Source of the DNA: Aggregatilineales bacterium
Lineage (GTDB): Bacteria > Chloroflexota > Anaerolineae > Aggregatilineales > UBA2796
DNA length: 64,000 nucleotides
Direction of reading: 5' to 3'
NCBI GenBank assembly: GCA_038239365.1
Contig: JBBSEU010000001.1
Coordinates: 9,688-73,687, forward strand
The notes under the pieces are model-generated. The model did not search any database. It had not been told where the DNA came from and was given only the letters and a program-made list of their open reading frames with translations. The translations under genes and the position numbers were made by a program. Positions 2,006-62,296 of this stretch are shown here, piece by piece (position 1 is the first letter of the stretch; each line of letters opens with the position of its first letter).

Positions 2006-2047
2006 GAACTTTAGCAACCACGCCTTTTTGCTTCACGGGTACCAGAC

Positions 2048-4345
2048 CTATATGAAATAAATACGGATTGGCACATTTGCCAGACGGATTTCGTCGCCGC
2101 TTTTTAGCGGATACGGTTCATTTGGCTTTATGGCGACGCCGTTAATAAATGTGCCATTGGTACTCCGCAAGTCCTCAATTTGTAACCCGTCGGGGTTGTG
2201 CTGAAGCCGGGCGTGGATACGTGAAACACCAAAGCTATCAGCCTGAAAATCCGTCAGATCGATGTGTTCATCCGGGTTTGCCTCCGGGTTGTGACGACCC
2301 AACGTTATTTGTGAGCCGACAGTGTATGTCAAAGGCATACCAGAATTGTTGACGAACACGACGATTGATAGACCTTCAATCACCTGCGTCGAGTTATTCA
2401 ATGCCTGCCGTTTACTGTCGCTGCTGCCTGTAGCCTTCATTCGATTTGAAGTCGCTTTCCGTGCCAGTATTTCAGCCGCAAGTGCTGCTTCGTCGGTTCG
2501 TGTCAGCGTAGAACTCTCGGCGGAAAGCTCATTTTGATGACCGGATGGCACTACGTTGGCGGGTAACATATCCGGTGCTGCGGTCACTGGCTCAGATACT
2601 TTGGCTTGTTCCGCCGATTTAACGTAGCCAACCTGTACCGTCCAGGGATCAACGCGATTTAGCAGAACACCAGTCACAGGCAGGGATAAGCCACTCAGAT
2701 AACGCTGCGCGCGAACGGCTGCGGCGCGGGGGGTATGCCCGGCGTCAATAACCAGAATGACCTCTGATGTGGTTAACTTGGCGATCAGTGCTGCATCTGC
2801 CTGTTCCAACAAGGCTGGTGCATCGAAAATGATGACATCATACGATGTATCTTTTGCCAGATTCTCCATAAACTGCCGCATTTCCGGCGAGTCGATAAGG
2901 CCTGTTCGGTCAGGCACGGCGACACCTGCCGTGATCACAGACAGACAAGTAATCTCAGTGGGCTTCGCCAGCCTCTCCATCAACTCAGACCAGCGATTTG
3001 TATCTTGTAGTCCATCCTCATATGCCTCCGTTGGCAGTGGGGGCAAAAGCCGAGTTGTCATGGAACCGTTCGTATGAGGCGCTTCTAACTGTTTTACGCC
3101 TTGAGCTTCGGGTTGGCGTGAAACAGTGGTCAAGGCTGTTTCTTCGAGATTCAGAGTCAGAACCGTTGATAGTCCCTGTTCGTTGGACAACTTGAAGATT
3201 TTATGCAATGTTGGATGACGCAAATTCGTATCAACCAGCAAAACCCGTAGTCCGGTCAATGCAAAGGTCACCGCCAGATTAGCTGCATTAATGCTTTTCC
3301 CCTCTTTGGGGTGGGGACTGGTAACGGTATAGCGTAGATGAAGCTGATCGCTTTTTTTCCTCTGCAAAAGCAGATTAAGATACAAAATGCGATAGGCCTC
3401 GGATACTGCCGAAATGGGATTCAGGTACGCGATCAGCTTTTTGTTGTAGGCGCGTCTTCGGCCAAAAGGCGTGATCATGCCGATGAGTGAAAGCCCCAAC
3501 AATGACTCGATTTCTGAGGGTAGACGAATTCCATCCGTCAGGTACTCAACGACGAACACAATGCTCATCGAAAAGACTAACCCGGCGACGAGCGCCACCA
3601 ATGTATTGAGAGTTGCAGACGGCCCGGTGGACTTAACCGGCGTATAGGCCGCCTCAACAACGGTCAGCGTATTGACAGCGTTGGCGTCTTGCAGCTTGAT
3701 TAAGATGCCAAGCTGGTCATTGAGGATAGTTTGTGCGGCAAAGATACGATCATTCAACTCGCTTCGGCGTGTCGTCAACGCCGCTGCATCGGTTGGGCTA
3801 TTCGCAAGCGCCTCAGTAACCTGGTTTAACTCGTCATGGAGGCCTTTCAATTGAGCCTGTGTCTTATCCAGCTCATCCTTGACAACCCGTATCTGATCCT
3901 GCTGTTCAATAGCGATCTTGGTCGGGCTGTTGACAATCAGCTCATCGGCCAGGGCATTGGCGATGCTGGCCGCCAGCACCGGGTTGGAGTTGCTGACAGT
4001 GATGGTAAATAAAGCCGTGTTGGCGCGTGTCTTGACCTGAAACATCTTATCGAGTGCGTCTGCCGTCAGATTGAGGTGCAGACGGTCAATCACGACATTT
4101 AGCGTATTCCGCGTCCGCACGATAAAGATGTAGGTATCTGCCAGTTCGCGGGGGAGCGTCACGGTGGGGCTGTCCAGGTTCGGGTTGCCTGCGCGTGCGG
4201 ACCCAATCTCAAGCGTTGTTGCGGCCTCGTAAATTGGGGGTTGTGCCTTTGTAAAGATGAAGGCGCTGCCGCCTGCCAGAAGCAGCGATAATCCGATTAA
4301 CCAGAACCAGCGACGAAGAATGGAGACATACGTCAGAAATTGCAT
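2048..4345 (-). CDS. Polysaccharide co-polymerase (Wzz/PCP) fused to BY-kinase-like P-loop domain and a C-terminal FHA domain
   Basis: ORF track 2048..4351 (GTG 4351, ATG 4345). TM1 WFWLIGLSLLLAGGSAFIF, long helical ectodomain, TM2 LVALVAGLVFSMSIVFVV. P-loop TSPHPKEGKS, Walker A-prime LLVDTNLR, Walker B VIIFDAPA. C-terminal FHA strings LGRHN, GVSRIHARL, STNGTFINGV, GDEIRL. Confidence 0.85.
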   Translation of the reverse strand: MQFLTYVSILRRWFWLIGLSLLLAGGSAFIFTKAQPPIYEAATTLEIGSARAGNPNLDSPTVTLPRELADTYIFIVRTRNTLNVVIDRLHLNLTADALDKMFQVKTRANTALFTITVSNSNPVLAASIANALADELIVNSPTKIAIEQQDQIRVVKDELDKTQAQLKGLHDELNQVTEALANSPTDAAALTTRRSELNDRIFAAQTILNDQLGILIKLQDANAVNTLTVVEAAYTPVKSTGPSATLNTLVALVAGLVFSMSIVFVVEYLTDGIRLPSEIESLLGLSLIGMITPFGRRRAYNKKLIAYLNPISAVSEAYRILYLNLLLQRKKSDQLHLRYTVTSPHPKEGKSINAANLAVTFALTGLRVLLVDTNLRHPTLHKIFKLSNEQGLSTVLTLNLEETALTTVSRQPEAQGVKQLEAPHTNGSMTTRLLPPLPTEAYEDGLQDTNRWSELMERLAKPTEITCLSVITAGVAVPDRTGLIDSPEMRQFMENLAKDTSYDVIIFDAPALLEQADAALIAKLTTSEVILVIDAGHTPRAAAVRAQRYLSGLSLPVTGVLLNRVDPWTVQVGYVKSAEQAKVSEPVTAAPDMLPANVVPSGHQNELSAESSTLTRTDEAALAAEILARKATSNRMKATGSSDSKRQALNNSTQVIEGLSIVVFVNNSGMPLTYTVGSQITLGRHNPEANPDEHIDLTDFQADSFGVSRIHARLQHNPDGLQIEDLRSTNGTFINGVAIKPNEPYPLKSGDEIRLANVPIRIYFI

Positions 4346-4395
4346 ACTCACCCGTCTTGTTAACCAATTGCGAAGGTTTAGATGGCACGATTGAA

Positions 4396-4884: not shown

Positions 4885-5125
4885 TGCACTACCTTCATGG
4901 CTATTCAAGAAGCGTTATTTCGTCGTATTTTATCACGAGATAGAGCTTTTCGTAGCGCGTTTCGGCAGCCCGATATGTTTGGATATTGATACTTTTCTGT
5001 AATGAAAAGCTACCATATTTAGTACCCTGGTCTCATTGTGTGACCCCCCAAAAACCGGGATACTGAAGATTGTAAAGAAAGCATTGTGTCTTTACGGTTC
5101 GACAACGCACAGGAGAGGATGGCCC

Positions 5126-7198: not shown

Positions 7199-7235
7199 GC
7201 AGCCGAACTGTTTACGGCTCGGCTGCCTGTTTTTG
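7199..7235 (+). terminator. Candidate rho-independent terminator after the beta-helix gene
   Basis: GCAGCCGA (7199..7206) pairs with TCGGCTGC (7219..7226), followed by CTGTTTTTG. Overlaps the last codons of the convergent minus-strand gene. Confidence 0.4.
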
Positions 7236-8705
7236 CCTCGTTGCGGCTTGCAATCCCGCAGAGCTGCCTGCCAGAGCCTGGCTTTTCTCTTGTTGATACA
7301 ATACCCACAAGGCGGTACTGATGCCTGCGAACATCCAGATTGGCTTGTAATACTGTGTGGTTGAGGTCAGGCCGTGAATACAAAAGGCGATGAACGTGGT
7401 AAACCAGGTGGCACTGAGTCCGACCATTTCGCGCGATTTGGAACGAAGCATAATCCGCAACAGATCCCAGCAGCTAGCAAGCAGCCAAAGCAGATAAATG
7501 ACAGCGCCAACAACGCCTGTTTCGACCAGAACGGTCAAATACATATTGTGCGGAACCTTATCTACATAGTGCGAGAAATCGGCATTGATGTAGAACCGAT
7601 TATATTCCGTAAATTGACCTATACCCACGCCCACAATTGGATAGTCGCGCCACATGCGAATGGCGCTGTCCCAGAGCGCGTAGCGTACCACGCTGGTATC
7701 ATTCCAGGATGTGGTGCCCACATCGCGTGTTGGGACGCCGGACATTCGGATCGTCTCCTCCAGAATCTGCCAGTAGCTGCCCGGCACGATCACCAATGCA
7801 ACTAATCCTACGCCAACGACCCAGATCATCCGGGAGCGTATGAGTGCCAAATAGGATTTCGGTTCTTTGGCAAAAGACGGCAGCAGCAAAAACATCAGCA
7901 CCAGCACCGCAACCAGCATGATGAAGCCAGTTCGAGAAACGGTCACGACGATACCGAGTGATAGCAGCGCGATGATTAGCGGGAAGAGGAAACGAGTCCA
8001 GTTCTTGGCTTTGGCTCCCAGATACATGGCAAAGGCCAGGGCGAAAATCAGAAACAAGGCCGTCTCGTCCTGGTTTCCAGTCAAATCTGCGCCACCGCGC
8101 ACTGTTGTGACCAGCGAACCTGTAATATGCGCTTCGGGAATTGACAGCGCCGCATTTAAACAGCCAGTGGCGATGCAGCAGATCATCAGGATGTGCTGTT
8201 TGTCCGGCGGGATTAGCTCTGCCGACAGCCAGACTAACATCAACAACTGAACGTAAGTCCACAGCCAGTTCCGCGATGCTCCAGCCGTAGCCGCCTGGAC
8301 ATTGGTGAAGGTCATCCACAAAATGAACGCCAGACCCAAAAGAAACTGTGGACGCAGCAGATAGCGCACTTCAAATTGAAGGCGATTCTGAAATAGATGC
8401 CCGGCCAACGTCACTAATCCAACCAATGACAGAACTGAACTGAAAATCGGCACATCGGGATACTTGGCTTGCAAGGGCATACTTGCTAACAGAAAAACCA
8501 GACCAAAGAACGGCCTGAAAAAGAGCAGTCCGGCGAAAAGGACACCCGCTACCCCAAGCAGCAAAACGGGGACAATATCGGGCCCATTCTGGGCAATGAG
8601 CAGCCCCAAAATGACGGCCCCAGCCAGCGTTGCCAGCGCCACAACAAAGATGAGTGCCTGGGACGAGGCCAGTTTAAGACTTTGCCTAAGTGGTTGCAGA
8701 AGCAT
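7212..8705 (-). CDS. O-antigen ligase/polymerase family (Wzy_C-type) integral membrane protein
   Basis: ORF track 7212..8948. ATG at 8705 (MLLQPLRQSL...) avoids a 260 nt overlap with the upstream gene. About 12 TM segments with VSRTGFIMLVAVLV and PHNMYLTVLVETGVVGAVIYLLWL strings typical of the family. Confidence 0.8.
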   Translation of the reverse strand: MLLQPLRQSLKLASSQALIFVVALATLAGAVILGLLIAQNGPDIVPVLLLGVAGVLFAGLLFFRPFFGLVFLLASMPLQAKYPDVPIFSSVLSLVGLVTLAGHLFQNRLQFEVRYLLRPQFLLGLAFILWMTFTNVQAATAGASRNWLWTYVQLLMLVWLSAELIPPDKQHILMICCIATGCLNAALSIPEAHITGSLVTTVRGGADLTGNQDETALFLIFALAFAMYLGAKAKNWTRFLFPLIIALLSLGIVVTVSRTGFIMLVAVLVLMFLLLPSFAKEPKSYLALIRSRMIWVVGVGLVALVIVPGSYWQILEETIRMSGVPTRDVGTTSWNDTSVVRYALWDSAIRMWRDYPIVGVGIGQFTEYNRFYINADFSHYVDKVPHNMYLTVLVETGVVGAVIYLLWLLASCWDLLRIMLRSKSREMVGLSATWFTTFIAFCIHGLTSTTQYYKPIWMFAGISTALWVLYQQEKSQALAGSSAGLQAATRQKQAAEP

Positions 8706-9798
8706 GACGAATCGGTTCCCTGTGGATAAGCTGCCGTAAACAATCCACATAACTTTCGGAGTTACGATACAGATCGCCGCGATTGCGTGCCGTGATGAGA
8801 TTATCATGCCAGGCGCGCTGCCGGAGCGCCAGATTGGTGATCGCTTCAACAGCCGCTTCCGCGACGGTTGCGGGTTCGATGTTGTCCAGAAGCAGACCCG
8901 TTTTGCGATGCTCGATCCAATAGCGATTGGCTGCATTATCCGGCACAATCGGCATGAGGCCGACGGACATAGCCTCTATCAGGGATGATGATACCCCATC
9001 GGAAGGTATCAGGCTGATATACAGATTATGTTGTGCCAGGATCGTGGGCAGTTGATCGTTCGGGACGAAACCCAGAAAACTGACATACTGCTGCACATCA
9101 AGCTGCTGTGCCAGCGCCATCAGATTAGCACGTTCCGGGCCATCCCCCGCAATGGTCAGATGTGCTTCAAAGCCGCGCTGCCGCAGGGTATGGATCACAC
9201 GGATCAGGCGGTCATTGTTGTAGCGCGCCTGCAAAGAGCGCGTACAGACAATGCGGATGGGTTCTCCCAAAACGGGCGGCGCACAGCGCGTTTTGGCAAA
9301 TTCCTCAACGGGAATACCCAGTGGAATAATAGCGATTCGGTCTTCTGCAACGCCTAACTGATGAATGGCATCCGCCATGTGAGGTGCCAGTGCCGTCGTC
9401 ATATCTGCGCGTGACAGATTAAACTGGATGACGCGTCGCATGATCGGGTTTTGGGGCGACACGAGAATGTCACTCCCGGCTGTCGATAGCACGAGCGGGC
9501 GGTAACCTGCTAAAGCCGCCAGCGTGCCATAACCAGTGATGTAATAGGCAATCACCATATCCGGCTTGATTTCTTGAATCTGGCGGCGTACATAGGGCAG
9601 CGCCGCCAGATATTGCAATTTCTGCAAACGCGGCGGTATCGGAATGGGGAGAGCCTGTGGGAGCTTGCTGCCGCCGCTGCGGAAGGAAAGCAGATGAAGT
9701 TCTGCCCCGGCTTTTTCCAGTGCTTTGTACCAGCGTTGCACGTCCACATGACCCGCATCGGCCAACCAGACGATTCGCAGCGGGCGTTTTTCATTCAT
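8686..9798 (-). CDS. Glycosyltransferase, GT4-like (GT-B fold)
   Basis: ORF track 8686..9828 (TTG), ATG at 9798 (MNEKRPLRIVWLADAG). C-terminal SDGVSSSLIEAMSVGLMPIV resembles the E-x7-E sugar-donor motif. Confidence 0.8.
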   Translation of the reverse strand: MNEKRPLRIVWLADAGHVDVQRWYKALEKAGAELHLLSFRSGGSKLPQALPIPIPPRLQKLQYLAALPYVRRQIQEIKPDMVIAYYITGYGTLAALAGYRPLVLSTAGSDILVSPQNPIMRRVIQFNLSRADMTTALAPHMADAIHQLGVAEDRIAIIPLGIPVEEFAKTRCAPPVLGEPIRIVCTRSLQARYNNDRLIRVIHTLRQRGFEAHLTIAGDGPERANLMALAQQLDVQQYVSFLGFVPNDQLPTILAQHNLYISLIPSDGVSSSLIEAMSVGLMPIVPDNAANRYWIEHRKTGLLLDNIEPATVAEAAVEAITNLALRQRAWHDNLITARNRGDLYRNSESYVDCLRQLIHREPIRHASATT

Positions 9799-9877
9799 AA
9801 ATTTGGCGCAGGAGACCCCCGTTTTCAAACCAGGGAGGAATGCGCGCTAGCTCCTTTCCGTATGATCAACATCCAGT

Positions 9878-11008
9878 TTAGGCGGGAAGCGTCGATTTCT
9901 TTTGAACTTCGCCCGTTTCCAGCAAATTCTGGTAAATCGTGCTAAAGGCTTCGGTGAAAACATCCAGGCTGTAGAGTTGTGAACGTTCTTTGCCCTTCTC
10001 ACCCATCTGCCGACGGAGTGTTTCATCGCCAAGCAGGGTGCAGATATGAGCGGCCATCGCGTCATCATCACCGATAGGGACAACGAAGCCCGTCACGCCG
10101 TTCAGAACCAGTTCGCGGCAGCCCCCACTATCGGTCACGACACAGGGCAGCCCGGAAGCCATCGCTTCGATGATGGCGTTGGGTGAGCCTTCCACGCGGG
10201 AAGTCAGGATAAACATACTCATCGCCTTGAGCAAATCAGGCACATCGCGGCGTTCACCAATAAGCTGAACGACATCCGTTACCCCCAACTCATCGCGCAA
10301 TGCTTCCACCACTGGCCGCAACGGCCCTTCCCCCACAAAAACAAAGCGCGCATCCGGGTACTTTTTGACCACTTGCGCTGCAACCCGGATGAAGTTTTCC
10401 GGGCTTTTGTTGTTGGTCAGGTGGGCAACCGTCCCGATAATCGGCTTACCGCGCCATGTTTCCGGCAGCGGCCAGTTACCGGTTACGCTGCCCAGAAACT
10501 TATTGATATCCAGTCCGTTGAACACAACCCCGGCTTGTTGAGGGCGTATCATGTGGTGTGCCAGCATGTAATCGCGGGCGATATAGGAATTGGCGATAAC
10601 GGCTTTCACATCACGATTTAAGAATGGCAGCAGATTTTGGTACCATTGTGGGTGATATGTCGGGTGATTGCCTTCGTTGACAATGAAGCGGGTGTTTCTT
10701 GCCAGCATCACAGCAAGTCTGCCGTACAGACCGCTAACGCTATCCAGAAACAAATGCGTGATGTCCGGCTTGAGTGTGCGGATCAGGTGGTGGACTTGCC
10801 GCAAACGCTGTACCTCAAGGCGATGGTGGCGCTCTAACTCGATAACCTGATAACCAAGCTGGCGGATCGGTTCAGCCCAGTAGCCACCGGGTGAGAAGGA
10901 GACAACAGTGGCGCGCGGGTGAAGGCGTGCCAACAGATGATAAAGCTGCTGTTCAGCGCCACCCCGATCCAGTTGTCCAATCAAGTAGAGTACGGAATAA
11001 TCATTCAT
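9878..11008 (-). CDS. Glycosyltransferase, GT4-like
   Basis: ATG start. LYLIGQLDRGGAEQQ N-terminus and SRVEGSPNAIIEAMASGLPCVVTDSGG (E-x7-E). Confidence 0.85.
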   Translation of the reverse strand: MNDYSVLYLIGQLDRGGAEQQLYHLLARLHPRATVVSFSPGGYWAEPIRQLGYQVIELERHHRLEVQRLRQVHHLIRTLKPDITHLFLDSVSGLYGRLAVMLARNTRFIVNEGNHPTYHPQWYQNLLPFLNRDVKAVIANSYIARDYMLAHHMIRPQQAGVVFNGLDINKFLGSVTGNWPLPETWRGKPIIGTVAHLTNNKSPENFIRVAAQVVKKYPDARFVFVGEGPLRPVVEALRDELGVTDVVQLIGERRDVPDLLKAMSMFILTSRVEGSPNAIIEAMASGLPCVVTDSGGCRELVLNGVTGFVVPIGDDDAMAAHICTLLGDETLRRQMGEKGKERSQLYSLDVFTEAFSTIYQNLLETGEVQKKSTLPA

Positions 11009-11109
11009 AGGTAAACCGTGTGGTCAATCCTTTTGTGTATACTATGTAGTCGGACGAGTAGATTTTCGACGAACCTTGCTCAGTTAGAACATTGCAAAAA
11101 GGGAGAAGC

Positions 11110-12174
11110 ATGCCCACCTATTCACCATCTCAGCGCGTGAACAGCTTCGATGCAGCGGACACGCCGCAGCAATTGCGTCAGGTTAGTGTCGTGATGCCAA
11201 TCCGCAACGAGGCAAATACGATCAGCCGCTGCCTTGAAGCCGTGTTGAACCAGGATTATCCCCATAGCGACATGGAAGTATTCGTCATTGACGGCATGTC
11301 TACCGATAATACCAGAGATATTATTGCCTCTGTCGCCAGTCGATACCCGGATGTGTCGGTGACGATTCTGGATAATCCGCGTCAAATTGTAGCACCGGGA
11401 CTGAATGCCGCCCTCGATCAAGTCAATGGCGACATCATTGTTCGCATTGATGGACATTGTGAAATCGATCCCGATTACATTTCGCGCTGCGTGGCCTACC
11501 TGCAAACAGGTGACATCGACGGTGTAGGGGGGCCTATCCAGACCATCGGAAAAACCCCCCTCAGCGAAACGATTGCGCTGGGGATGAGTTCCAAGTTTGG
11601 TGTCGGAGGTTCGGCCTTCCGCACCGTCACTGATAAGGCGATGATCGTTGACACCGTCGCTTTTCCGGCTTACACCCGCCGCATTGTTGAGCAAGCGGGC
11701 AAGTTCGATGAAGAATTGGTTCGCAACCAGGATGATGAGTACAACTACCGCATTCGCGCGCTGGGCGGCACGATATTTCTGGCTCCTGATATTCACTCCC
11801 GTTACCACAGTCGCGGTACGCTCCCTTCGTTGTGGCGGCAGTATTTCCAATATGGCTATTGGAAAGTGCGTGTCATGCAGAAACATCCACGACAGATGAG
11901 CCTTCGCCAGTTTGTGCCACCCACGTTCGTCGGTGTTTTGCTGGTGAGTGGTCTCCTGTCCCCGTTCAACCGAACGATGCGCCGTTTAGGTTTTGGCGTC
12001 GCGCTGCTGTATGCGGCGGCAAATCTTGGTGCCTCAATATGGACTGCGAATAAACATGGCCGCCAACATCTGGCGCGTTTGCCAGCCGTGTTCGCGGCAC
12101 TACACGTGAGCTATGGATTAGGATTTTTGGTGGGACTGGCTCGGTTTGCCAACCGCTGGCGGGAGCGGCGCTGA
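11110..12174 (+). CDS. Glycosyltransferase family 2 with C-terminal TM segments
   Basis: ORF track 11092..12174 (TTG), ATG at 11110 after GGGAG. VSVVMPIRNEANTISRCLEAVLNQDYP...VIDGMSTDNT is a GT-A/GT2 signature. One of only two plus-strand genes inside the glycan locus. Confidence 0.85.
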   Translation: MPTYSPSQRVNSFDAADTPQQLRQVSVVMPIRNEANTISRCLEAVLNQDYPHSDMEVFVIDGMSTDNTRDIIASVASRYPDVSVTILDNPRQIVAPGLNAALDQVNGDIIVRIDGHCEIDPDYISRCVAYLQTGDIDGVGGPIQTIGKTPLSETIALGMSSKFGVGGSAFRTVTDKAMIVDTVAFPAYTRRIVEQAGKFDEELVRNQDDEYNYRIRALGGTIFLAPDIHSRYHSRGTLPSLWRQYFQYGYWKVRVMQKHPRQMSLRQFVPPTFVGVLLVSGLLSPFNRTMRRLGFGVALLYAAANLGASIWTANKHGRQHLARLPAVFAALHVSYGLGFLVGLARFANRWRERR

Positions 12175-12798
12175 AGCCAGTCCGCTGTCTGTTTCAGATT
12201 TGAACAACGCTTTGACCGTTTGCGACAAGATGCCAATGTCGCGCCAGACGGTCACGTTGTTCAGATACTCCAGGTCAATGGCAAGTTTGGCGGGCAGAAT
12301 CGAATGGATATAGCGATCTTCCCAGTCGGGGCCGGTGAGGAGCGCCTCCTCATGTCGGAAGCGGACACTTGCCAGACTGGTAATGCCGGGGCGCACTTCC
12401 AACAGTTTGCGTTGTTCCGGCGTATACAGTGCCACATAGCGCAAATCCTCTGGACGCGGACCGACCAGACTCATGGTGCCTGTCAGCACATCAAACAGTT
12501 GGGGTAGTTCATCGAGTTTCGTCCGACGCAGAATGCGCCCCACCGACGTGATACGTGGATCGTGCGATTTTGTGATGCCAGCCCCGATTTTATCCGCATT
12601 CACAACCATCGTTCGGAACTTATGGACTTTAATTTTGGCCCCATGTAACCCGGCACGAGTCGCCGCGTACAAAATAGGGCCGGGTGCTGTCAACTTGATC
12701 GCCAGAGCGATAATCAGCAGCACAGGTGACAAAATGAGCAGCACAACGGCGCTGACCACAATATCGAAAGCGCGTTTCAGGAGTCGCGGACGTGGCAT
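12118..12798 (-). CDS. Small monotopic phosphoglycosyl transferase (bacterial sugar transferase, PglC/WbaP-C-like)
   Basis: ATG start. N-terminal re-entrant helix AVVLLILSPVLLIIALAI. Signature KFRTM...DELPQLFDVLTGTMSLVGPRPE. Confidence 0.9.
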   Translation of the reverse strand: MPRPRLLKRAFDIVVSAVVLLILSPVLLIIALAIKLTAPGPILYAATRAGLHGAKIKVHKFRTMVVNADKIGAGITKSHDPRITSVGRILRRTKLDELPQLFDVLTGTMSLVGPRPEDLRYVALYTPEQRKLLEVRPGITSLASVRFRHEEALLTGPDWEDRYIHSILPAKLAIDLEYLNNVTVWRDIGILSQTVKALFKSETDSGLASAPLPPAVGKPSQSHQKS

Positions 12799-12801
12799 TG
12801 C

Positions 12802-13989
12802 TTATCTCCTATACTGCTTCACAATATCCATTACCGCGGCCACCACATCATACACATCCTCGTCGGTCAGTTGTGTATTGAGCGGCAATGAGAAGCTGCG
12901 TAGATATTCCCGATACGAAATAGGGCATGTATCCGGCTGCCAGCCATATTTATCCCGATAGTAGGGGTGCAGATGCAATGGAATAAAATGCACGCTGCTG
13001 CCGATATTGCGCGTTTTCAGGTGTTCGATGAACTGGGCGCGATCAATGGTCAACTGATCGAGGTGCAGGCGCAAAATATACAGATGGTTGGCGTGTTCGA
13101 CGTTGGGGCGCTGTGTAGGCCGCTCAATCGCTTCGACATCGGCAAAGGCGGCATTGTAGAGGTCGACGATCTGCTTGCGGCGCATCTGTAGCTGGGTTAG
13201 CCGTTGAAGTTGGACAAGACCCATGGCGGCTTGAATATCGGTCATATTGTATTTGAAACCGGGCGCAACCACTTCGTAGTACCAGGAGCCTTCATTGCTG
13301 TATCGCTTCCAGGCGTCCCGATTCATCCCATGCAGACTAAACAAACGCGCCCTGTCCAGAAATTCGGGGCTGCCCGTCAGCATTCCACCTTCGGCAGTGG
13401 TCAGGTTTTTTGTGGCGTAAAAGCTGAAAGCAGTCGCATCGCCGATGGTTCCGATCTTTTTGCCGTTGTAGGAGGCAGGCAGCGAATGCGCCGCATCCTC
13501 AATAATCGACAGGTTGTGTTTCCGGGCTAAGTCCAGCAGCCCATCCATCATGGCGGGGTGACCCGCGAAGTGAACTGGCATGATCGCTTTGGTGCGCGGC
13601 GTGATCTTTTCCGCGACTTTTGCCGGATCGATAGTCATAATGTCGGCTTCGATGTCAGCCAGGACGGGCGTTGCGCCAACGTGTTCGATGACATTGGCCG
13701 TTGCACAAAAGGTAGTCGGCGTCGTAATCACTTCGTCGCCTGGGCCGATATTGAGTGCGGCCAGTGCCACATGCAGCCCACCGGTGCAGGAATTTAGCGC
13801 CAATGCGCCAGGGGCACCGATAAAGCTGGCAAACTCAGTCTCGAATTTCTTGGTTTTAGGTCCCGTAGTGATCCAGGATGAACGCAGCGTATCAACGACA
13901 GCCTCGATCTCGGCCTCAGTAATATCGGGCGGGGAAAACGGTAAAAATGTAGTGCGAGTCCGGTTGGAAAGCGATGTTGGAATGACCAT
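12802..13989 (-). CDS. DegT/DnrJ/EryC1/StrS-family sugar aminotransferase (PglE-like)
   Basis: ORF track 12802..14028 (TTG), ATG at 13989. DITEAEIEAVVDTLRSSWITTGPK and FSFYATKNLTTAEGGML (PLP-lysine region). Confidence 0.9.
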   Translation of the reverse strand: MVIPTSLSNRTRTTFLPFSPPDITEAEIEAVVDTLRSSWITTGPKTKKFETEFASFIGAPGALALNSCTGGLHVALAALNIGPGDEVITTPTTFCATANVIEHVGATPVLADIEADIMTIDPAKVAEKITPRTKAIMPVHFAGHPAMMDGLLDLARKHNLSIIEDAAHSLPASYNGKKIGTIGDATAFSFYATKNLTTAEGGMLTGSPEFLDRARLFSLHGMNRDAWKRYSNEGSWYYEVVAPGFKYNMTDIQAAMGLVQLQRLTQLQMRRKQIVDLYNAAFADVEAIERPTQRPNVEHANHLYILRLHLDQLTIDRAQFIEHLKTRNIGSSVHFIPLHLHPYYRDKYGWQPDTCPISYREYLRSFSLPLNTQLTDEDVYDVVAAVMDIVKQYRR

Positions 13990-14067
13990 TAGTGTTTGCG
14001 GTGATGCGCCTGCCGATGGGCAGCACAAACCGCGTTCTCCTTTCGTACAGATAACGGTAGTTAATTG

Positions 14068-15129
14068 TTAGCGGCCACGCAGGATGTCGGCAGCGGCTCT
14101 AAAGCGCCCCATGACCTGCTTAAGAGTCGGTCCCCAACGCTGGGGGACTATGAAATGCCGTGCCAAAAGCAGCGTATCGACACTCCATGCGTAGACAAAC
14201 CAAAATTTATCATGAAGGGTGTGCTGCGGCAGCGCCCGGCGGTGAATGGCATACTTGTTGTAAATCTCCATATAACCCAGCTTTGCATAGTTCGGGCGGC
14301 CTGCCGGATCATGGAAGTGCAGGACGTGTGCCGCACCTGCCAGCAGAAGTTTTCCTTTCTGGCGGGCACGAAGACTGAATTCCAGGTCTTCACCTAACCC
14401 ATAGCCATGAAAGTTCTCCAAAAAACCGATTTCGAGCGGGACGACAGTTTTCCACATCGCCACCCCGCCTTGCAGCCAATCGCCTTCGATGGCTGCCTCC
14501 GTCGGTTGCAGCGCATTCCAAGGGATCGAAATGCCAGAATGGTAATAGCGACCCGGTTGCAGGGCGGGCACCAAATATAGCAGACGCGCGATACGCCAAT
14601 AGAGCGTCATCATACGACTGTCGATCTGGTTTTCGATAAAAGCTGCTACTCCAACAACGTTATCACCTCCCGTGCGATGCACTTTTTCAAGAGTCGCCAG
14701 ACAGCCTGGCCGCAGGACAATATCATCATCAAAAAACGCAACCAGATCAGTGGAAACCCAGGTCAGAGCAAAATTGCGCTGGCGGGTTAAACCCCGTAAG
14801 GGTTCAGCTACACGCCAATAGATAAGCTGATGACTCAGTCGGTCAAGATCGGTTCGCTGCCGCAGACTTCGCTCCGTGCTGTCGTCGATACTGGCATCGA
14901 CGATGATGAGTTGATCAGGTCGCCGATCATGTTCACTCAGCGAATCCAGAAAACGGTTGAGGCTGGCCGCACGCATGTAGGTGCAAACGACAACCGCGCA
15001 GCCGGGAACGAGCGATTGAGGAGTTGGCGTCGTCCAATTAGAAGCCAATGGAGGCCGGGAAAAGCCGCTGAGGACGTTTTCAGGCATCGTATGTATTGCC
15101 GTTTGTGGCGCAGTCACGTTCTCAAGCAT
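14068..15129 (-). CDS. Glycosyltransferase family 2
   Basis: ORF track 14068..15195. ATG at 15129 gives an 8 nt ATGCTTGA overlap with the upstream stop. CAVVVCTYMRAASLNRFLDSLSE...LIIVDASIDDST and FFDDD (DxD). Confidence 0.8.
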   Translation of the reverse strand: MLENVTAPQTAIHTMPENVLSGFSRPPLASNWTTPTPQSLVPGCAVVVCTYMRAASLNRFLDSLSEHDRRPDQLIIVDASIDDSTERSLRQRTDLDRLSHQLIYWRVAEPLRGLTRQRNFALTWVSTDLVAFFDDDIVLRPGCLATLEKVHRTGGDNVVGVAAFIENQIDSRMMTLYWRIARLLYLVPALQPGRYYHSGISIPWNALQPTEAAIEGDWLQGGVAMWKTVVPLEIGFLENFHGYGLGEDLEFSLRARQKGKLLLAGAAHVLHFHDPAGRPNYAKLGYMEIYNKYAIHRRALPQHTLHDKFWFVYAWSVDTLLLARHFIVPQRWGPTLKQVMGRFRAAADILRGR

Positions 15130-16288
15130 TGGAAAGTGCCCTGTCAATTTGCGGTGGAGTGAGGCAGCTTTGATAAAAGCGTTCGTTGTCGGCAAGCAGC
15201 GTCGTTAGCGCGAAGTTTTGCCGGACGTGTGCCTGTCCTGCTTTGCCCAACTGATCAGCCAGATTTGGATTGCCCAAAATGCAGGTTATTGCCGACACGA
15301 TTTCATCTGGCTGATCAGGATCGATCAGTAACCCGGTTTTGTTGTCTTCGATCAATTCTGGCCCACTACAGCGCCGGGTATAAACCATTGGGCAGCCGCA
15401 GGCCATTGCCTCCAAGGGCACCAACGCAAAGGCCTCGGCATAAGACGGCAAAACGGCAAGTGCGGCTTCCTGATAGGCGCGGCGTAGTTCGCTCTGCGTG
15501 ATATGACCGTGAAAAACTACCGACTTTTGAGCGAGCGGCGTAAGCTGATCAAGCAGGTAAGCGCGCATCGACTGACGCGCTTCGGTGAAGCCATCTTTGC
15601 CGTAGATGTGCAATTCCGCGTCAGGCATTGCTGCCAACACCTGGGGCCAGGCTTGAACGAGTGCAATGATCCCCTTCTTTGCGGTCAGCGTTCCAGCAAA
15701 CACCACGCGATTTGTAGATCGTGTCACGGTATCCTGTTCAGAGATGAATTCGGCTGCATTGTAGAGAATCTGGCTGCACGGACGGCGGGGTTTCAATAGC
15801 TGCTGCGTTTTGCGGGCAGTATATTGACTGACAGAACACCATGCTTCGGCGCGGCCTAATGAGGCTTGTTCCAACCAGAAGGTGAGCCGGTCAGTTGGCT
15901 TTGCCAGTTCTACCGCGAAGTAGGTGGAGCAGCCATGCAGCCGAACGACCAACGGTACGGACAGCTTCGGCCAGAAAGCCGCCCATCCGTGCCAATCGGG
16001 GACTTCCACGAGATCGATCTCACCCTGCCGACTCCAGGCGGCGATAGTGCGATAGAGGCGATAGCGCGCTGAGACCCAACCCAGACGCGCACTGGAATGT
16101 CGCAGCCGCCAGACCTGAACCCCTTGATCCACTTCGTATTCGGCTTCTGGCGTGGTGGGGGCGTAAATCCCCACGACACGAACCTGGTGACCCGCCTGAA
16201 CCAGTGCCCGCCCGAAACGCTGAACGAAGCTGCCAATGCCGCCATGTGAGGATGGCGGATATTCGGAGCAGACAAAACACAGCCTCAT
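15122..16288 (-). CDS. Glycosyltransferase, GT4-like
   Basis: ATG start in an ATGA overlap with the upstream stop. MRLCFVCSEYPPSSHGGIGSF and SYAEAFALVPLEAMACGCPMVYT (E-x7-E). Confidence 0.85.
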   Translation of the reverse strand: MRLCFVCSEYPPSSHGGIGSFVQRFGRALVQAGHQVRVVGIYAPTTPEAEYEVDQGVQVWRLRHSSARLGWVSARYRLYRTIAAWSRQGEIDLVEVPDWHGWAAFWPKLSVPLVVRLHGCSTYFAVELAKPTDRLTFWLEQASLGRAEAWCSVSQYTARKTQQLLKPRRPCSQILYNAAEFISEQDTVTRSTNRVVFAGTLTAKKGIIALVQAWPQVLAAMPDAELHIYGKDGFTEARQSMRAYLLDQLTPLAQKSVVFHGHITQSELRRAYQEAALAVLPSYAEAFALVPLEAMACGCPMVYTRRCSGPELIEDNKTGLLIDPDQPDEIVSAITCILGNPNLADQLGKAGQAHVRQNFALTTLLADNERFYQSCLTPPQIDRALSNA

Positions 16289-17829
16289 CGTGCAGAGTTC
16301 ATTTCAAGGCTTGCGGTCTGCACGATTGGCGGCAGGGCGTTCGATGCAGCCGATGGCCTTATATCCACATGAACCAGGCGGGTGATTAGCCCGGCAATAC
16401 GTTCAGCCGTTTTGCCATCAACGAGGCCGCAGTCAGTGGCCGCCAGCTTTTCGCGTTGGTGCTGATCGCGTGTCCGATCCGCCACATAAGCGGTGACTTC
16501 GGTGACGAGTTGATCCATATTTTGTGCCAGCCGCACGCCGCCACTTTCGATGATCGGCGCGTAAAAGTCTGTTTCATAGGCCATGTGGCAAAAACGATCC
16601 TCTTTGCTGCCCGCTTCTAATGCAAATCCCACACAAACGGCGGGTGTGCCCACTGCCGCCGCATCAAGGCTCATGGTTGACCACATGTTGAGGCAAACAT
16701 CAGCATAGCGCAGACTGTTAACAAGCAATGCCTGTTCTTCGGCCTTGCTGAAATGCCAACTGCGCGTGGTCGGCTGGCTAACCACGAGGTTAGGCGCGTT
16801 CATCAGTTTTCCAGCCCACCGTTGATAATTGTCCTGGGGGTGAAGCCGGGTAACGATCATGTGGTTGCACAATTTCAGTGAACGTTTGCAACGCTGCGCG
16901 AATTCTGCGATCAAATCGGCCTCTGTCGGCGTTTGATGAAATGAATTGGCCGCATAGAGAACGTAACGAGTTCCCGGCGGCAAACCCAGCCGAGTGAGCG
17001 TTTCCTCGCGTGTCCAGCGAAATTCATCGCGCCCATGAAAGTCAAATTGTGGTGCCCCGGTGATGTGTACACGAGACTTAGCAACCTGGGGATGAAAGGT
17101 CAGCAGTTGATTTTGCATACGTTGATTCCAGACTGAGAAATCATCGCAGGGCGCAATTTGTGGCCGACTGGTGAGTGCATCAAAACTTTGGATACAGCCG
17201 AGCGTTGGAATACCCAGATCGCGGGCAGCCATAATATACGCTTCTTCAGCCCAGATAACGCAGCTTGTGGCGACAACCAGCGATGGACGCAATTGTTTCA
17301 GTTGTTCTCGCGCCTGCTCAAAATTCCATTGTTGGTACTTGGAATGTTGCAACGCCTCGTTTTGCCAGCCAAAGAAAGGATCGTGGCTGCCTACAATAGA
17401 AAGCGCCTGAGCCGCCTGATTCCGTATCTTTTCCCAGAGCGAAACATTGCGAAAATACCACCAGCGGGTGACCCGATCATTATTCAGGTGATAGCGCCGG
17501 AAGAAAGAAGCCCGCTGGATGGCACCCAACGTGGCGGCCCCGCGCTGCTGTCTCACCAGGGGTGGTGCGGTTAACACAGACCACCCTTCCACACCATCAT
17601 AGTCCTGATGTTCTAAAGGGTTAACCTTCGTATTCCGAAAAGCCGGAAGATAATTTTCCATCGTTTCGGGCGTTCCAATGAGCAAATGCGAACGGATGCC
17701 GTGTTGCCGTAAAAGTCGGGCTACTCCGGTATGCACCATATTTCGGATACCGAGATGTACCGGGCACAGGAATACCACAGGGCCAAGTGCTTTTGCATCC
17801 GTAGTAGTCGGTAGAGATTGAGAGTGCAT
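16285..17829 (-). CDS. Uncharacterised 514 aa protein, possibly a GT-B-like transferase
   Basis: Long ATG-initiated ORF, translationally coupled on both sides inside the glycan operon. No family motif I can name with confidence. C-terminal half (VLYAANSF...VTRLHPQD...MWSTMSLDAAAVGTPAVCVGF) resembles the nucleotide-sugar-binding half of GT-B/capsule transferases. Confidence 0.55.
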   Translation of the reverse strand: MHSQSLPTTTDAKALGPVVFLCPVHLGIRNMVHTGVARLLRQHGIRSHLLIGTPETMENYLPAFRNTKVNPLEHQDYDGVEGWSVLTAPPLVRQQRGAATLGAIQRASFFRRYHLNNDRVTRWWYFRNVSLWEKIRNQAAQALSIVGSHDPFFGWQNEALQHSKYQQWNFEQAREQLKQLRPSLVVATSCVIWAEEAYIMAARDLGIPTLGCIQSFDALTSRPQIAPCDDFSVWNQRMQNQLLTFHPQVAKSRVHITGAPQFDFHGRDEFRWTREETLTRLGLPPGTRYVLYAANSFHQTPTEADLIAEFAQRCKRSLKLCNHMIVTRLHPQDNYQRWAGKLMNAPNLVVSQPTTRSWHFSKAEEQALLVNSLRYADVCLNMWSTMSLDAAAVGTPAVCVGFALEAGSKEDRFCHMAYETDFYAPIIESGGVRLAQNMDQLVTEVTAYVADRTRDQHQREKLAATDCGLVDGKTAERIAGLITRLVHVDIRPSAASNALPPIVQTASLEMNSAR

Positions 17830-17843
17830 TTATCTTTTTCCTA

Positions 17844-19133
17844 TCAAAAAGAATGAGTAGAACGGGATGATGGTGACAGTGTATTCAGCTGTTGATAAGC
17901 GGCCTGTCCCAACTCGATTTGCCGGAGCGCAGCATCCAGTAATATCGGACGGATTTGGTCGGCATGAGTCCAGGCATTCTCCATTGCTGTGCGTAAAGAC
18001 TGTGCCCAATCTGCATCGCTTAGAAGGATCATTTCGCAACCTTCCCCAAATTGATCGCGCAGCCCGACAAATTTATCGACGTAGTATTGGGATTGCGCGA
18101 GGCAGATCGTTGGAATGCCCTGTGAGAGTGCGAATACGGCGGCATGGTAGGCACCCGTAACAACAATGCGGCAGCGGCCTGCCAGTTCAATCGCCTGTGT
18201 CGGGCGTGTGATGGTCAGGCCGTCCGTTACAGAATTTTCGTAGCCCATCAAAAGACTTTGAATATGGCACGGATCATCTACCCCCACGTGAAGCGCGATG
18301 GGAATTGGGATCAGCGGCGCTTGATGCGTCCTGGCGAACTCATGCAAAATCGGGCGCAGCTTCTCAATCATGGTCAGGCCGATCTCCGCGTAAGCTGCCA
18401 CCCGCAGGTTAATGCCGACGCCATTGGAAAGCGTCGATGGGTGGGCATTATAGGCCAGTTCAATCGCATCATCGCCAGTCGTCACGATGCGTTCAGACGG
18501 GACACCCAGAGCCTCGAGCAAGGGGCGGGCAGTCACTTGTTCGCGGATCGCAATCAGGTTCACATGAGGCAGCACAGCACTGACTCTAGCGCGTAATTGA
18601 GGGTCGTCCATGGGGCCAATGCCCTGACCAAACAAGGCAGTCGGTATTCCCCGGCGGATCGCCATGTCGAGTGTTTCCAGCACCAGATATGTCCAACTCT
18701 TTGCGGAGTCGGTGAAGCCCCCTGTTCCACTGACCAATAGCCAGTCAGCATTTTTCAGGGTATCCAGAAACGGGCGTGGATCACCTTGAGGGTTTCGCAG
18801 CCGCGCTTTCAGGCAAATGGCCGACTCGACCAGAAAAGGCTGTGTGCGCTCTATCTGACGTTTGAGCACGCCCAACTGATGCGAACGACGGGGCGGTAAA
18901 CGATTATGTACAGCGCCTAGCAGGTAGTCATCGGCCAACCAGCTATAACGGCTTAGTTCGTGGAGCGGCGTGGCTTCGGGGCAGTGCTTGAGCAGAGTTT
19001 CTGGCACGCGCGTCAATACTTTCAGATTGGCTTGCGGCCACATGATACACAGCCGGTGCAGCATCACCTGAAGCATTGCCAGATCGCCTAAATTATCGCA
19101 ATTTGAATTATCGGAGTCAATCAAAATTTGCAT
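17844..19133 (-). CDS. Polysaccharide pyruvyl transferase family protein (CsaB/WcaK-like)
   Basis: ATG start. N-terminal NLGDLAML and C-terminal IVVTGAYHAAVFALSQGIPTICLAQSQYYVDKF match the PS_pyruv_trans pattern as I recall it. Confidence 0.7.
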   Translation of the reverse strand: MQILIDSDNSNCDNLGDLAMLQVMLHRLCIMWPQANLKVLTRVPETLLKHCPEATPLHELSRYSWLADDYLLGAVHNRLPPRRSHQLGVLKRQIERTQPFLVESAICLKARLRNPQGDPRPFLDTLKNADWLLVSGTGGFTDSAKSWTYLVLETLDMAIRRGIPTALFGQGIGPMDDPQLRARVSAVLPHVNLIAIREQVTARPLLEALGVPSERIVTTGDDAIELAYNAHPSTLSNGVGINLRVAAYAEIGLTMIEKLRPILHEFARTHQAPLIPIPIALHVGVDDPCHIQSLLMGYENSVTDGLTITRPTQAIELAGRCRIVVTGAYHAAVFALSQGIPTICLAQSQYYVDKFVGLRDQFGEGCEMILLSDADWAQSLRTAMENAWTHADQIRPILLDAALRQIELGQAAYQQLNTLSPSSRSTHSF

Positions 19134-19154
19134 GATCCCCCGTTTGACAGGTTT

Positions 19155-20222
19155 TCAACTTTTGGCGATATGCTCCCAGCTAAGCGGCGTGCCGCGCGGG
19201 AGGTCGCGTGTGGCCTGGCAACCCAGGATTGAATGCAGATACTTCGGCGGCAAGCCATTGCCCGGACGGATCGAGCGAACATTCGCTGACGTGAAGACCT
19301 CGCCTGCTTTGAGATCAGCCACCACGAACAATGAACGGCGGAAAATGCCGCTTTTCCGCTCTTCCTCGCCAACTTCATAGTGAACCGTGCCGAGTGCTTT
19401 CTCAGCCGTGCGGATCGCTTGAACCATCTGCTTGAACTCATCCGGTTCAAGGGAAAAGGTGCTGTCCGGCCCAGGAATGGAACGTGACAGGGTGAAATGT
19501 TTCTCAACGATGCACGCACCCAGCGCCACCGCCGCGACGGGCACCGTCGTACCCAGAGTGTGATCCGACAGGCCAATTGGCACACCAAAGGTCTGGCTCA
19601 GGTGCGGGATCGTGTTCAAGTTCATTTCTTCGGGTGGTGAGGGATAAGCACTGGTACATTTAAGGAGTGCCAGTTGCGTCGCCCCGCCTTCGGACGCTGC
19701 GCTGACGGCATCTTGAATCTCTGCCAGATTTGCCATGCCTGTCGAGATGATCATCGGCTTGCCCGTTCGAGCGATGTACTGGATCAAGGGCAAATCGATC
19801 ATCTCAAAGGACGCCACTTTGTAAAACGCGACATTGAGCGATTCCAGGAAATCGACAGCCGTTTCATCGAACGGTGTTGAGAAAAAATCCAGCCCACACG
19901 ACTCGGCCACTGCCTTAAGTTTGGGGTGCCACTCCCAGGGGGTGTACGCTTCACCATACAGATCGTACAGGTTGCGGCCTTCCCAGAGCGACCCGGCACC
20001 GATCTGGAAATATTCGTTATCGCAATCAATAGTGAGCGTGTCCGGTGTGTAGGTCTGTAGCTTTACCGCATCGGCACCCGTTTCTTTGATGGCATGAATG
20101 ATCCGCACGGCTTCATCGAAATCCTGGTTGTGGTTCGCCGACATCTCGGCAATGATGTACACCGGTTCACTGGGTCCGATCTTTCGGCCATTGATCGTCA
20201 AATGAGTCGATAACGTGTTCAT
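19155..20222 (-). CDS. pseI: Pseudaminic acid synthase-type nonulosonic acid synthase (NeuB family, SAF C-terminal domain)
   Basis: IIAEMSANHNQDFDEAVRIIHAIKETGADAVKLQTYTPDTLT, GLSDHTLG, C-terminal SAF-like VVADLKAGEVFTSANVRSIRPGNGL. ATGA overlap with the upstream gene. Confidence 0.85.
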   Translation of the reverse strand: MNTLSTHLTINGRKIGPSEPVYIIAEMSANHNQDFDEAVRIIHAIKETGADAVKLQTYTPDTLTIDCDNEYFQIGAGSLWEGRNLYDLYGEAYTPWEWHPKLKAVAESCGLDFFSTPFDETAVDFLESLNVAFYKVASFEMIDLPLIQYIARTGKPMIISTGMANLAEIQDAVSAASEGGATQLALLKCTSAYPSPPEEMNLNTIPHLSQTFGVPIGLSDHTLGTTVPVAAVALGACIVEKHFTLSRSIPGPDSTFSLEPDEFKQMVQAIRTAEKALGTVHYEVGEEERKSGIFRRSLFVVADLKAGEVFTSANVRSIRPGNGLPPKYLHSILGCQATRDLPRGTPLSWEHIAKS

Positions 20223-23136: not shown

Positions 23137-23142
23137 CGCCCC

Positions 23143-25720: not shown

Positions 25721-25721
25721 G

Positions 25722-26417: not shown

Positions 26418-26436
26418 GTTAACTTTACCTACTCGC

Positions 26437-27414: not shown

Positions 27415-27448
27415 TGCGGACAGCCTTTACGCTTTATCGAGTCAGATG

Positions 27449-29660: not shown

Positions 29661-29688
29661 AGGTTGTTCCTTTGAAGTGCCCAATCTT

Positions 29689-31587: not shown

Positions 31588-31645
31588 CGTGATGGTTGAG
31601 ACGACAAGTTGTGGAACAACCTACAAGTTACGGACACGACGAACG

Positions 31646-32191: not shown

Positions 32192-32194
32192 TCC

Positions 32195-34165: not shown

Positions 34166-34388
34166 CAAGGCTAAATCACCTCATACCTATACGTTTCGTG
34201 GACGATGCAAGCGACTTGACAATTTCAATGATGGCTGGATGGAAAACGATTTGTCAATTTTAGATAGGTGTCAATGTGTTCAAGAGAAATTTGAATTCAT
34301 CGACAAATAGTCTTAAAGTCACACCTCAGCTTAGAGAACCAGAGAGACTAAAGCAACTATACTATTATTGTTTTGAAAGATCAAGAGC

Positions 34389-62226: not shown

Positions 62227-62267
62227 GATGAATAAGCGTAGCACAGCTAACCCGGCTCGGCAAGCGG

Positions 62268-62276: not shown

Positions 62277-62296
62277 GATCGATCAAGGTGTTTAAT

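Follow-up and report, generated by a model that had tools for sequence, protein, structure and literature searches.

A putative polysaccharide co-polymerase of an uncultured Chloroflexota bacterium combines a partly degenerate BY-kinase-like domain with a C-terminal FHA domain

A stretch of 64,000 nucleotides from an Aggregatilineales bacterium of the phylum Chloroflexota (contig JBBSEU010000001.1 of assembly GCA_038239365.1), called the window below, carries on its minus strand, at 2048..4345, a gene whose product joins a Wzz-type membrane module and a domain resembling bacterial tyrosine kinases (BY-kinases) to a forkhead-associated (FHA) domain. The question raised by this locus is how such a protein would be controlled, by its own tyrosine phosphorylation or through the recognition of phosphothreonine. 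An original prediction, made from the sequence alone, favoured the second answer and placed the FHA domain in the role of the tyrosine cluster that it took to be missing. Our analysis leads, with moderate confidence for the reading as a whole, to a protein that would be a polysaccharide co-polymerase of the PCP-2 type in a Wzy-dependent surface-polysaccharide pathway, would bind ATP, would run no phosphotyrosine cycle and would have its state set by binding of the FHA domain to phosphothreonine.

The open reading frame (ORF) is continuous over 2048..4351 (minus strand, as for all features of the gene given below) and encodes 767 residues from a GTG codon, from which residues are numbered here. 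An identical database copy, P0001, and the homologues start at the ATG at position 4345, which gives 765 residues (stop codon 2048-2050). Pfam recognised a Wzz domain at residues 7-90, a weak GNVR match at 217-267, a CbiA/ParA-type P-loop domain at 343-572 and an FHA domain at 682-757 (PF00498, 62.3 bits for a cut-off of 20.7, E 5.7e-17), and the BY-kinase domain model TIGR01007 of NCBIfam matched in two stretches with 109.8 bits, barely above its cut-off of 108.05. An AlphaFold2 model computed with 84 homologues as input (mean predicted local distance difference test score, pLDDT, 85) showed in order a transmembrane (TM) helix, a helical-hairpin ectodomain, a second TM helix, the P-loop domain and a C-terminal beta-sandwich, an insertion and a linker being disordered. 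With this model, the top Foldseek match was full-length Wzc (E 1e-28), and the kinase domain was matched to those of CapAB, BceF, Wzc and Etk with TM-scores of 0.81-0.93.

The first TM helix (residues 15-34, 4250..4309) was located by a hydrophobicity scan and corresponds to a modelled helix 14-34 in the numbering of P0001. It is followed by an extracytoplasmic domain of about 210 residues (35-247, 3611..4249), assigned to the Wzz family with Pfam, AlphaFold2 and Foldseek, in which a long hairpin is formed by helices 141-182 and 184-224 of the model, with pLDDT above 90. After the second TM helix (248-270, 3542..3610; hydrophobicity scan and AlphaFold2) comes a juxtamembrane segment (274-300, 3452..3532) which aligns by phmmer as the equivalent of the C-terminal activator peptide of CapA and contains a Phe in 'ITPFG', and then the P-loop domain of BY-kinase fold (301-572, 2636..3451; TIGR01007 and Foldseek). 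In phmmer alignments with the CapA/CapB chimeras 4jmp and 3bfv, residues 274-400 fell on chain residues 17-141 and residues 454-568 on 143-253. The original description of two TM helices around an ectodomain, then a P-loop domain and then an FHA domain is confirmed by Pfam, TIGR01007, hydrophobicity and AlphaFold2, and the motifs that it quoted (PKEGKS, VDTNLR, IIFDAPA and the GR and SxxH of the FHA domain) were all found at their places.

Two TM helices flanking a helical Wzz/GNVR ectodomain, encoded inside a Wzy-dependent locus, place the protein with the PCP-2 co-polymerases. It had been called PCP-2a-like, and this holds for its being a fused protein; it does not hold for the ectodomain, which is short (~210 residues) compared with the ~400-residue periplasmic domain by which PCP-2a proteins dock the outer-membrane export partner OPX/Wza, nor for the locus. 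No OPX/Wza gene (Poly_export) was detected among the window ORFs of at least 150 residues, nor near the homologues. Because of the ectodomain size, and because CapAB, and not Wzc, gives the best sequence matches when solved structures are compared, the protein looks more like a fused CapA-CapB than like a PCP-2a protein. In agreement with a role in this pathway, FHA-bearing homologues with enough flanking DNA adjoin CapD, DegT, sugar transferase, Wzx/Wzy and glycosyltransferase genes.

Within the kinase domain, the nucleotide site is retained. Walker A reads PKEGKS (348-353, 3293..3310), with Lys352 and Ser353 intact; it fits the G-x5-GK[ST] consensus, and Lys occupies that column in 145 of 150 relatives, these being the 150 top-ranked cluster representatives when 1.8 billion proteins were searched exhaustively with HMMER. 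P-x-E-G-K-S is the consensus of Walker A in the clade, the x position being variable. Also kept are the Asp of Walker B, LNR as the contact to the base, and the activator Phe; in CapA, F221 stacks on the adenine (PMC2422856). The other motifs have changed. Walker A' (VLLVDTNLR, 370-378, with VDTNLR at 373-378; 3218..3244) departs from the hhhhDxDxR consensus since, as originally proposed, the second Asp of DxD is replaced by Asn: Asn376 lies at the position of CapB D79, where 134 of the 150 relatives have Asp, and His379 stands for CapB K82. Walker B (IIFDAPA, 507-513, 2813..2833) keeps Asp510, and the BY-kinase-specific DTPP has become DAPA, so that the +3 Pro of the extended hhhhDxxP motif is Ala513 and P512-A513 are found where CapB has P159-P160.

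The third change concerns the tail. A single Tyr, Tyr576 ('VGY', 2624..2626), was counted in the 40 residues past the last strand, for a median of 5 per 12-residue window in the relatives with DxD. The claim that there is no Tyr-rich tail is correct in that the cluster is gone, and has to be corrected in that the tail is not free of Tyr: comparison of the tails of P0091, P0092, P0094, P0100 and P0104 with those of P0001, P0002 and P0090 indicated that Tyr576 is a remnant at the place where the relatives' cluster ('D-A-G-Y-...') begins, as in 'DAGYGYYYYYGY' of close relatives. The domain also contains an acidic, Ser/Thr/Pro-rich insertion (401-453, 2993..3151), predicted to be disordered (pLDDT 44-63), which falls in the gap of the CapAB alignment between chain residues 141 and 143 and whose position is shared only with P0002 and P0090. 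An insertion of about 60 residues following A' had been announced; it is real, has 53 residues and starts 23 residues past A' in the CapA/CapB alignment.

In CapB, D79 is the proposed catalytic base, placed so as to take a proton from the Tyr that enters, and K82 and P159-P160 of the DTPP Walker B hold the substrate Tyr between them (PMC2422856). Since the catalytic base, the Pro-Pro pair and the Tyr cluster are altered together, Tyr trans-phosphorylation is predicted to be lost, and the domain is probably an ATP-binding one that no longer acts as a tyrosine autokinase. BY pseudokinases of the EcpK/HfsB type are defined by a BY-kinase fold in which the consensus of Walker A, A' and B and the Tyr-rich tail are missing (PMC12004946). 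The fold fits this definition, and so do the losses of A', of the extended Walker B motif and of the Tyr tail, whereas Walker A is still present, as is the Asp of Walker B; compared with these pseudokinases, the domain appears to be in an intermediate state and only partly degenerate. The retained residues, namely the Walker A Lys and Ser, the Walker B Asp, the base-contacting LNR and the activator segment, are also what would be expected of a BY-kinase that still works, with Asn376 sufficient for catalysis, Y576 and/or other proteins as substrates, and the FHA domain localising or gating a classical phosphotyrosine cycle. Y576, which P0002 and P0090 share and which stands where the ancestral cluster has its first residue, points the same way. 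The finding that the D81A and D83A substitutions of the Walker A' Asp residues of YwqD abolish kinase activity (PMC9800525) argues against it.

To what extent these changes go together with the FHA domain was apparent from the relatives. A C-terminal FHA domain was found by FHA-segment search in 7 of the 150 representatives (P0001, P0090, P0093, P0096, P0097, P0107 and P0212), and a search from P0097 added the carriers P0271 and P0272; about 115 of the 120 best matches of P0097 were ordinary 540-600-residue kinases of Aggregatilinea/Anaerolineae without FHA. Word-index protein searches with the window protein or the full alignment were insensitive and missed FHA relatives that HMMER recovered, and an exact-peptide-pattern scan of GTDB representatives with the window protein alone gave no relative. 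The scan of GTDB loci with the full alignment used Walker A' only as its pattern, and no FHA domain was seen within 8 kb in the 80 best species-representative loci, which are a sample of the matches listed and not a census. The Wzz-kinase-FHA architecture is rare but recurrent, and its carriers occupy three places in a rough neighbour-joining tree: P0090 with P0001 and P0002, then P0093, P0107, P0096 and P0097, and P0212. All known carriers are uncultured Chloroflexota from metagenomes, and the named best matches point to an Anaerolineae/Aggregatilinea-like host for the window.

This recurrence bears on the possibility that the fusion is an artefact, whether through chimeric assembly, read-through from one gene into another or decay to a functionless pseudogene. 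The protein is present in one sequence cluster only, and its nearest relative, P0002 (56% identity, Aggregatilineaceae), is ended by the end of its contig, both of which could raise such a suspicion. The artefact is effectively refuted by an identical protein on an independent Logan assembly contig, by the uninterrupted ORF, and by the same colinear architecture in at least 8 other clusters, of 29-41% identity and from different samples, in which functional residues are kept in both domains.

The carriers form a graded series. P0097, P0271, P0272, P0093 and P0212 combine FHA with DxD, the Pro-Pro pair and 4-7 tail tyrosines; P0090 has FHA, DxD, DTPP and 1 tail tyrosine; in P0096 and P0107, FHA and DxD are accompanied by loss of Pro-Pro and 0-1 tail tyrosines; and the window protein, P0001, has FHA, DxN, DAPA and 1 tail tyrosine. 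An FHA domain in place of a tyrosine cluster is thus not the rule that the original prediction suggested, since the first five proteins possess both. Because these five carriers combine DxD, Pro-Pro, Tyr cluster and FHA, the FHA domain seems to have been added to working kinases; in our reading, dual control arose first, when it was joined to canonical BY-kinases, and losses of the Tyr module followed among the carriers on at least three occasions, the window lineage appearing the most degenerate of them. A single origin of the fusion is not established, since the FHA domain of the window protein is 44% identical to a paralogous FHA domain of the same window, versus 36-40% to those of the second carrier clade.

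Among the 150 relatives, 16 have DxN. The Pro-Pro pair is kept in 2 of these 16 versus 116 of the 134 with DxD (Fisher p 2.4e-9), DxN relatives have far fewer tail tyrosines (Mann-Whitney p 1.7e-7), and FHA carriers have lost the Tyr cluster more often than non-carriers (4/7 versus 10/133, Fisher p 0.002), although these p-values come from phylogenetically related cluster representatives and overstate independence, and the FHA sample amounts to 7-9 clusters. Despite this kinship, the direction of the co-variation of DxN, Pro-Pro and Tyr cluster is clear from the sequences compared. Proteins with DxN are scattered over ten or more lineages of the neighbour-joining tree, which argues for a recurrent, coordinated loss and not for a single inherited accident. 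A kinase that still works with Asn376 would amount to the dual control of those FHA relatives that keep the Tyr cluster. It is difficult to reconcile with the change of base, Pro-Pro sandwich and substrate cluster at once, with the same combination in many lineages, and with the further loss of the Walker A Lys (GTS) in the closest relative, P0002; we regard a working kinase as unlikely. The claim that Tyr autophosphorylation has been given up has therefore gained sequence support, including from the DTPP to DAPA change, which was absent from the original prediction, and has lost its second half, that FHA came instead.

We turn to the C-terminal part of the protein. Tyr576 is followed by a linker (577-660, 2372..2623) which is predicted from its composition and from AlphaFold2 to be disordered but for one short helix (pLDDT below 50 at 573-618 and 629-656, helix 619-629, in the numbering of P0001). 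A Ser/Thr/Ala-rich linker of about 90 residues had been described; it is present, with a length of about 85 residues, Ser and Thr making up 21% and Ser, Thr and Ala 38%. The FHA domain (661-767, 2051..2371) rests on Pfam and on a beta-sandwich modelled with pLDDT above 90, so that both the profile and the structure prediction uphold the full C-terminal FHA domain originally proposed. Its phosphopeptide residues are intact (GR at 685-686, SRIH at 710-713 with S710 and H713, NG at 732-733); GR, SxxH and NG are invariant in the 7 FHA carriers, all of which pass the Pfam FHA model, and the phosphothreonine-binding site is predicted to be complete.

An FHA domain could also work without phosphothreonine, as a plain adaptor to another envelope machine or scaffold that receives no input from a Ser/Thr kinase. 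Genes for an active Ser/Thr kinase or a PP2C phosphatase were not found near the gene or its homologues, and other FHA fusions of the window, located beside a degenerate kinase-like gene, hint at FHA networks without a local active kinase. However, the Arg of GR, the Ser and His of SxxH and the Asn of NG are invariant among carriers that are only 29-40% identical overall, as expected under selection for phosphopeptide binding. Moreover, Ser/Thr kinases often act in trans from distant loci. A phosphothreonine-independent adaptor seems improbable to us.

Besides the kinship of the representatives, several observations weigh against a co-polymerase that has left the phosphotyrosine cycle for phosphothreonine binding. 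Asn can still hydrogen-bond the Mg-water network, so that residual kinase activity on Y576 or other substrates may persist. Two further points also speak for a working kinase: Wzc with D562A or D564A in Walker A' retains reduced activity and is not dead (PMC9800525), and some DxN relatives (P0098, P0203, P0215) keep 3-4 tail tyrosines. No convincingly conserved candidate Thr motif was seen in the linkers of the carriers compared, and no active Ser/Thr (Hanks) kinase, PP2C or candidate phosphothreonine ligand lies within 10 kb of the gene or its homologues; the sole kinase-like gene found in the window (55650-56594) is degenerate and 51 kb away from the co-polymerase gene. The window, like the surroundings of the homologues, contains no phosphotyrosine phosphatase signature; such a gene is also absent beside the homologues that keep the Tyr cluster, and its absence does not discriminate between the readings. 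Two short linker elements were considered as conserved motifs and rejected: 'T-R/S-T' (P0001, P0090, P0097, P0271), whose positions do not align and which is expected by chance as a short motif, and 'T-x-x-L' in several other carriers, equally unaligned and expected by chance; both are kept as leads only.

We nevertheless favour, with the moderate confidence stated at the outset, an ATP-binding co-polymerase governed by its FHA domain. In the mechanism that we propose, the protein would still bind ATP, and perhaps hydrolyse it slowly, and would no longer run the cycle of assembly and disassembly driven by phosphotyrosine. A Hanks-type Ser/Thr kinase whose gene lies at another place in the genome would act in trans and write phosphothreonine, and binding of the FHA domain to it would set the oligomeric state or the coupling to the polymerase/flippase machinery. 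The FHA domain might bind phosphothreonine in the Ser/Thr-rich linker or insertion of a neighbouring subunit, as in Rv1747, or else a phosphorylated partner protein of the assembly machinery. In evolutionary terms, this state would have been reached through canonical BY-kinases fused to FHA, followed by repeated decay of the Tyr module. A co-polymerase function independent of phosphotyrosine has precedent, since the BY pseudokinases EcpK and HfsB serve PCP-2 proteins as scaffolds without phosphorylation (PMC12004946), and the exporter Rv1747 has FHA domains with phosphothreonine sites in the disordered linker between them (PMC8339232). That phosphothreonine recognition would control chain length or export is a reasonable inference from these features. 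A more specific proposal is tentative: in several lineages, inter-subunit contacts between FHA and phosphothreonine may have replaced the contacts made by Tyr tails entering active sites, by which the octameric ring is built and broken, the kinase having decayed to an ATP-binding pseudokinase. If true, this hand-over would be a natural experiment, indicating that what a co-polymerase needs is reversible, phospho-dependent switching of oligomerisation, and not the phosphorylation of tyrosine in itself.

The gene is the last of a polysaccharide biosynthesis locus recognised by Pfam scans (7212..34168, minus strand; about 32 kb in all with the co-polymerase gene). At its head are a CapD-like dehydratase (32195-34168), a NusG paralogue (31646-32191) and an ABC exporter/flippase-like gene (29689-31587), followed by a nonulosonic-acid pathway that includes NeuB (19155-20222), then a pyruvyl transferase, several glycosyltransferases, one of them encoded on the plus strand (11092-12174), the initiating sugar transferase (Bac_transf, 12118-12798) and a Wzy-like polymerase (Wzy_C, 7212-8948); a divergent secreted beta-helix gene and a small orphan gene precede the co-polymerase gene. 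Unless stated otherwise, these genes lie on the minus strand. Close to the operon's head, the NusG paralogue comes just downstream of the CapD-like gene, which is the arrangement of UpxY/LoaP-like operon-specific antiterminators. The nonulosonic-acid genes (19155-29912, pseudaminic/legionaminic-like) encode a NeuB-type synthase, two cytidine monophosphate-sugar cytidylyltransferases, a PseB/CapD-type dehydratase, DegT aminotransferases, a formyltransferase and an acetyltransferase fused to DUF4910/M28, which is an unusual sugar chemistry for a surface polymer of Chloroflexota.

The beta-helix gene (5036-7171, plus strand, opposite to the locus) encodes a secreted right-handed beta-helix protein of 711 residues (Pel9A-like/NosD), whose C-terminal half consists of repeated 'GDWDG.G...IGV' units and which may be a polymer-trimming lyase or hydrolase. 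A similar gene lies near the FHA-bearing homologue P0093 (1290-2909 of its locus, L004). The 170-residue hypothetical protein encoded upstream of the co-polymerase gene (4396-4908) was considered as a partner and rejected, since it belongs to no Pfam family and none of the related loci has a counterpart. On the other side, 30 bases downstream, a gene at 380-2017 (minus strand) encodes a 545-residue protein with TM-like stretches and a spermidine-synthase-like domain; no counterpart was present beside any homologue examined.

Other genes of the window carry FHA or kinase-like domains. A regular expression for the Ser/Thr kinase motif HRDxKxxN had no match in the window, and Pfam later recognised one Pkinase-family protein (55650-56594, minus strand), with 'HGSLSPLS' for HRDLKPxN, 'DVG' for DFG and no Gly-rich loop, which is probably a pseudokinase. 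A single in-frame stop separates it from an ORF (54648-55694, minus strand) that is Pro-rich, has a TM helix at its C-terminus and contains tandem repeats of 96/123 bp encoding 'RAPEPPPMAMDRTMPEGFSVDQLRQ'; the stop lies inside the first repeat unit ('MP*GF' for 'MPEGF' in later units). The two ORFs were probably once one membrane-anchored protein; a pseudogenising mutation, an error in sequencing or a site of read-through could each explain the stop. The FHA-REC-FHA protein encoded at 53406-54647 (minus strand) has the C-terminal FHA domain mentioned above, 44% identical over 106 residues to that of the co-polymerase; set beside the 36-40% to the second carrier clade, this identity suggests an FHA subtype shared and shuffled within the genome. 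A seven-bladed WD40 protein is encoded after it (52392-53375). The secretion ATPase of the Tad/CpaF type (Pfam T2SSE) encoded at 56631-58946 (minus strand) has 771 residues and a C-terminal FHA domain at 684-761, so that the same 64 kb hold a second P-loop ATPase of an envelope machine ending in FHA; it is surrounded by a Tad-pilus-like cluster with two T2SSF genes (58999-59997 and 60009-60920) and TadE (61699-62331).

No description of the fusion was found by full-text literature searches that combined BY-kinase or Wzc with FHA or forkhead-associated, and FHA goes unmentioned in an evolutionary survey of BY-kinases (PMC4007543). BY pseudokinases, cross-talk between Ser/Thr and Tyr kinases, and FHA-regulated exporters are each known separately; their combination here is rare and undescribed. 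The fusion suggests that export of a sugar polymer responds in these bacteria to Ser/Thr kinase signalling: a phosphothreonine reader hard-wired to the kinase domain would link Hanks-type signalling to polysaccharide export in one polypeptide. This touches on questions raised in PMC12004946, namely how BY-kinases time polymerisation and export and how pseudokinases function without a phosphotyrosine cycle. The relatives offer a graded series for the features that are needed, from full kinase with FHA through one-Tyr kinase with FHA to degenerate kinase with FHA, the practical weight of the finding being limited by the uncultured, metagenomic nature of the carriers.

Among known systems, CapA/CapB of Staphylococcus aureus (PCP-2b with a separate BY-kinase; 3bfv, 2ved, 4jmp) gave the best sequence match of a solved structure (E 2e-24) and kinase-domain TM-scores of 0.89-0.93. 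The window protein shares with it the short ectodomain between two TM helices, the activator segment with its Phe, GKS, the Walker B Asp and LNR; it differs in being one polypeptide, in the replacements of D79 by Asn, K82 by His and P160 by Ala, in the 53-residue insertion and the one Tyr left of the cluster, and in the additional linker and FHA domain. Wzc of Escherichia coli (PCP-2a; 7nhr, 9r62) is a weaker sequence match than CapAB (E 1e-18) and the top fold match by Foldseek, and resembles the window protein in its fused TM and kinase domains and its co-polymerase role in a Wzy-dependent pathway. Unlike Wzc, the window protein has an ectodomain of about half the size, comes from a Chloroflexota host with neither Wza/OPX nor Wzb phosphatase genes found in its locus, and has lost the catalytic DxD, DTPP and the Tyr-rich tail and gained an FHA domain.

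The BY pseudokinases and phosphorylation-independent PCP-2 proteins, which include EcpK/EpsV of Myxococcus, HfsB/HfsA of Caulobacter, the fused SMc01795 of S. meliloti and GumC, termed a 'pseudo-BY-kinase', likewise show a BY-kinase fold deprived of catalytic and/or acceptor residues in a Wzy-type pathway, with a proposed scaffold role (PMC12004946; PMC9800525). EcpK is without all three Walker motifs, whereas Walker A and the Asp of Walker B persist in the window protein, and no pseudokinase described has an FHA domain or another phospho-reader. FHA domains are found again in Rv1747 of Mycobacterium tuberculosis, an ABC exporter regulated by PknF, whose FHA domain (6cah) was among the sequence matches of the window protein. 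Both are membrane P-loop export components for envelope glycoconjugates, with cytoplasmic FHA and a disordered Ser/Thr-containing linker, which in Rv1747 carries phosphothreonine sites (PMC8339232); they differ in that Rv1747 belongs to an unrelated transporter family, has N-terminal and paired FHA domains, and has an identified kinase.

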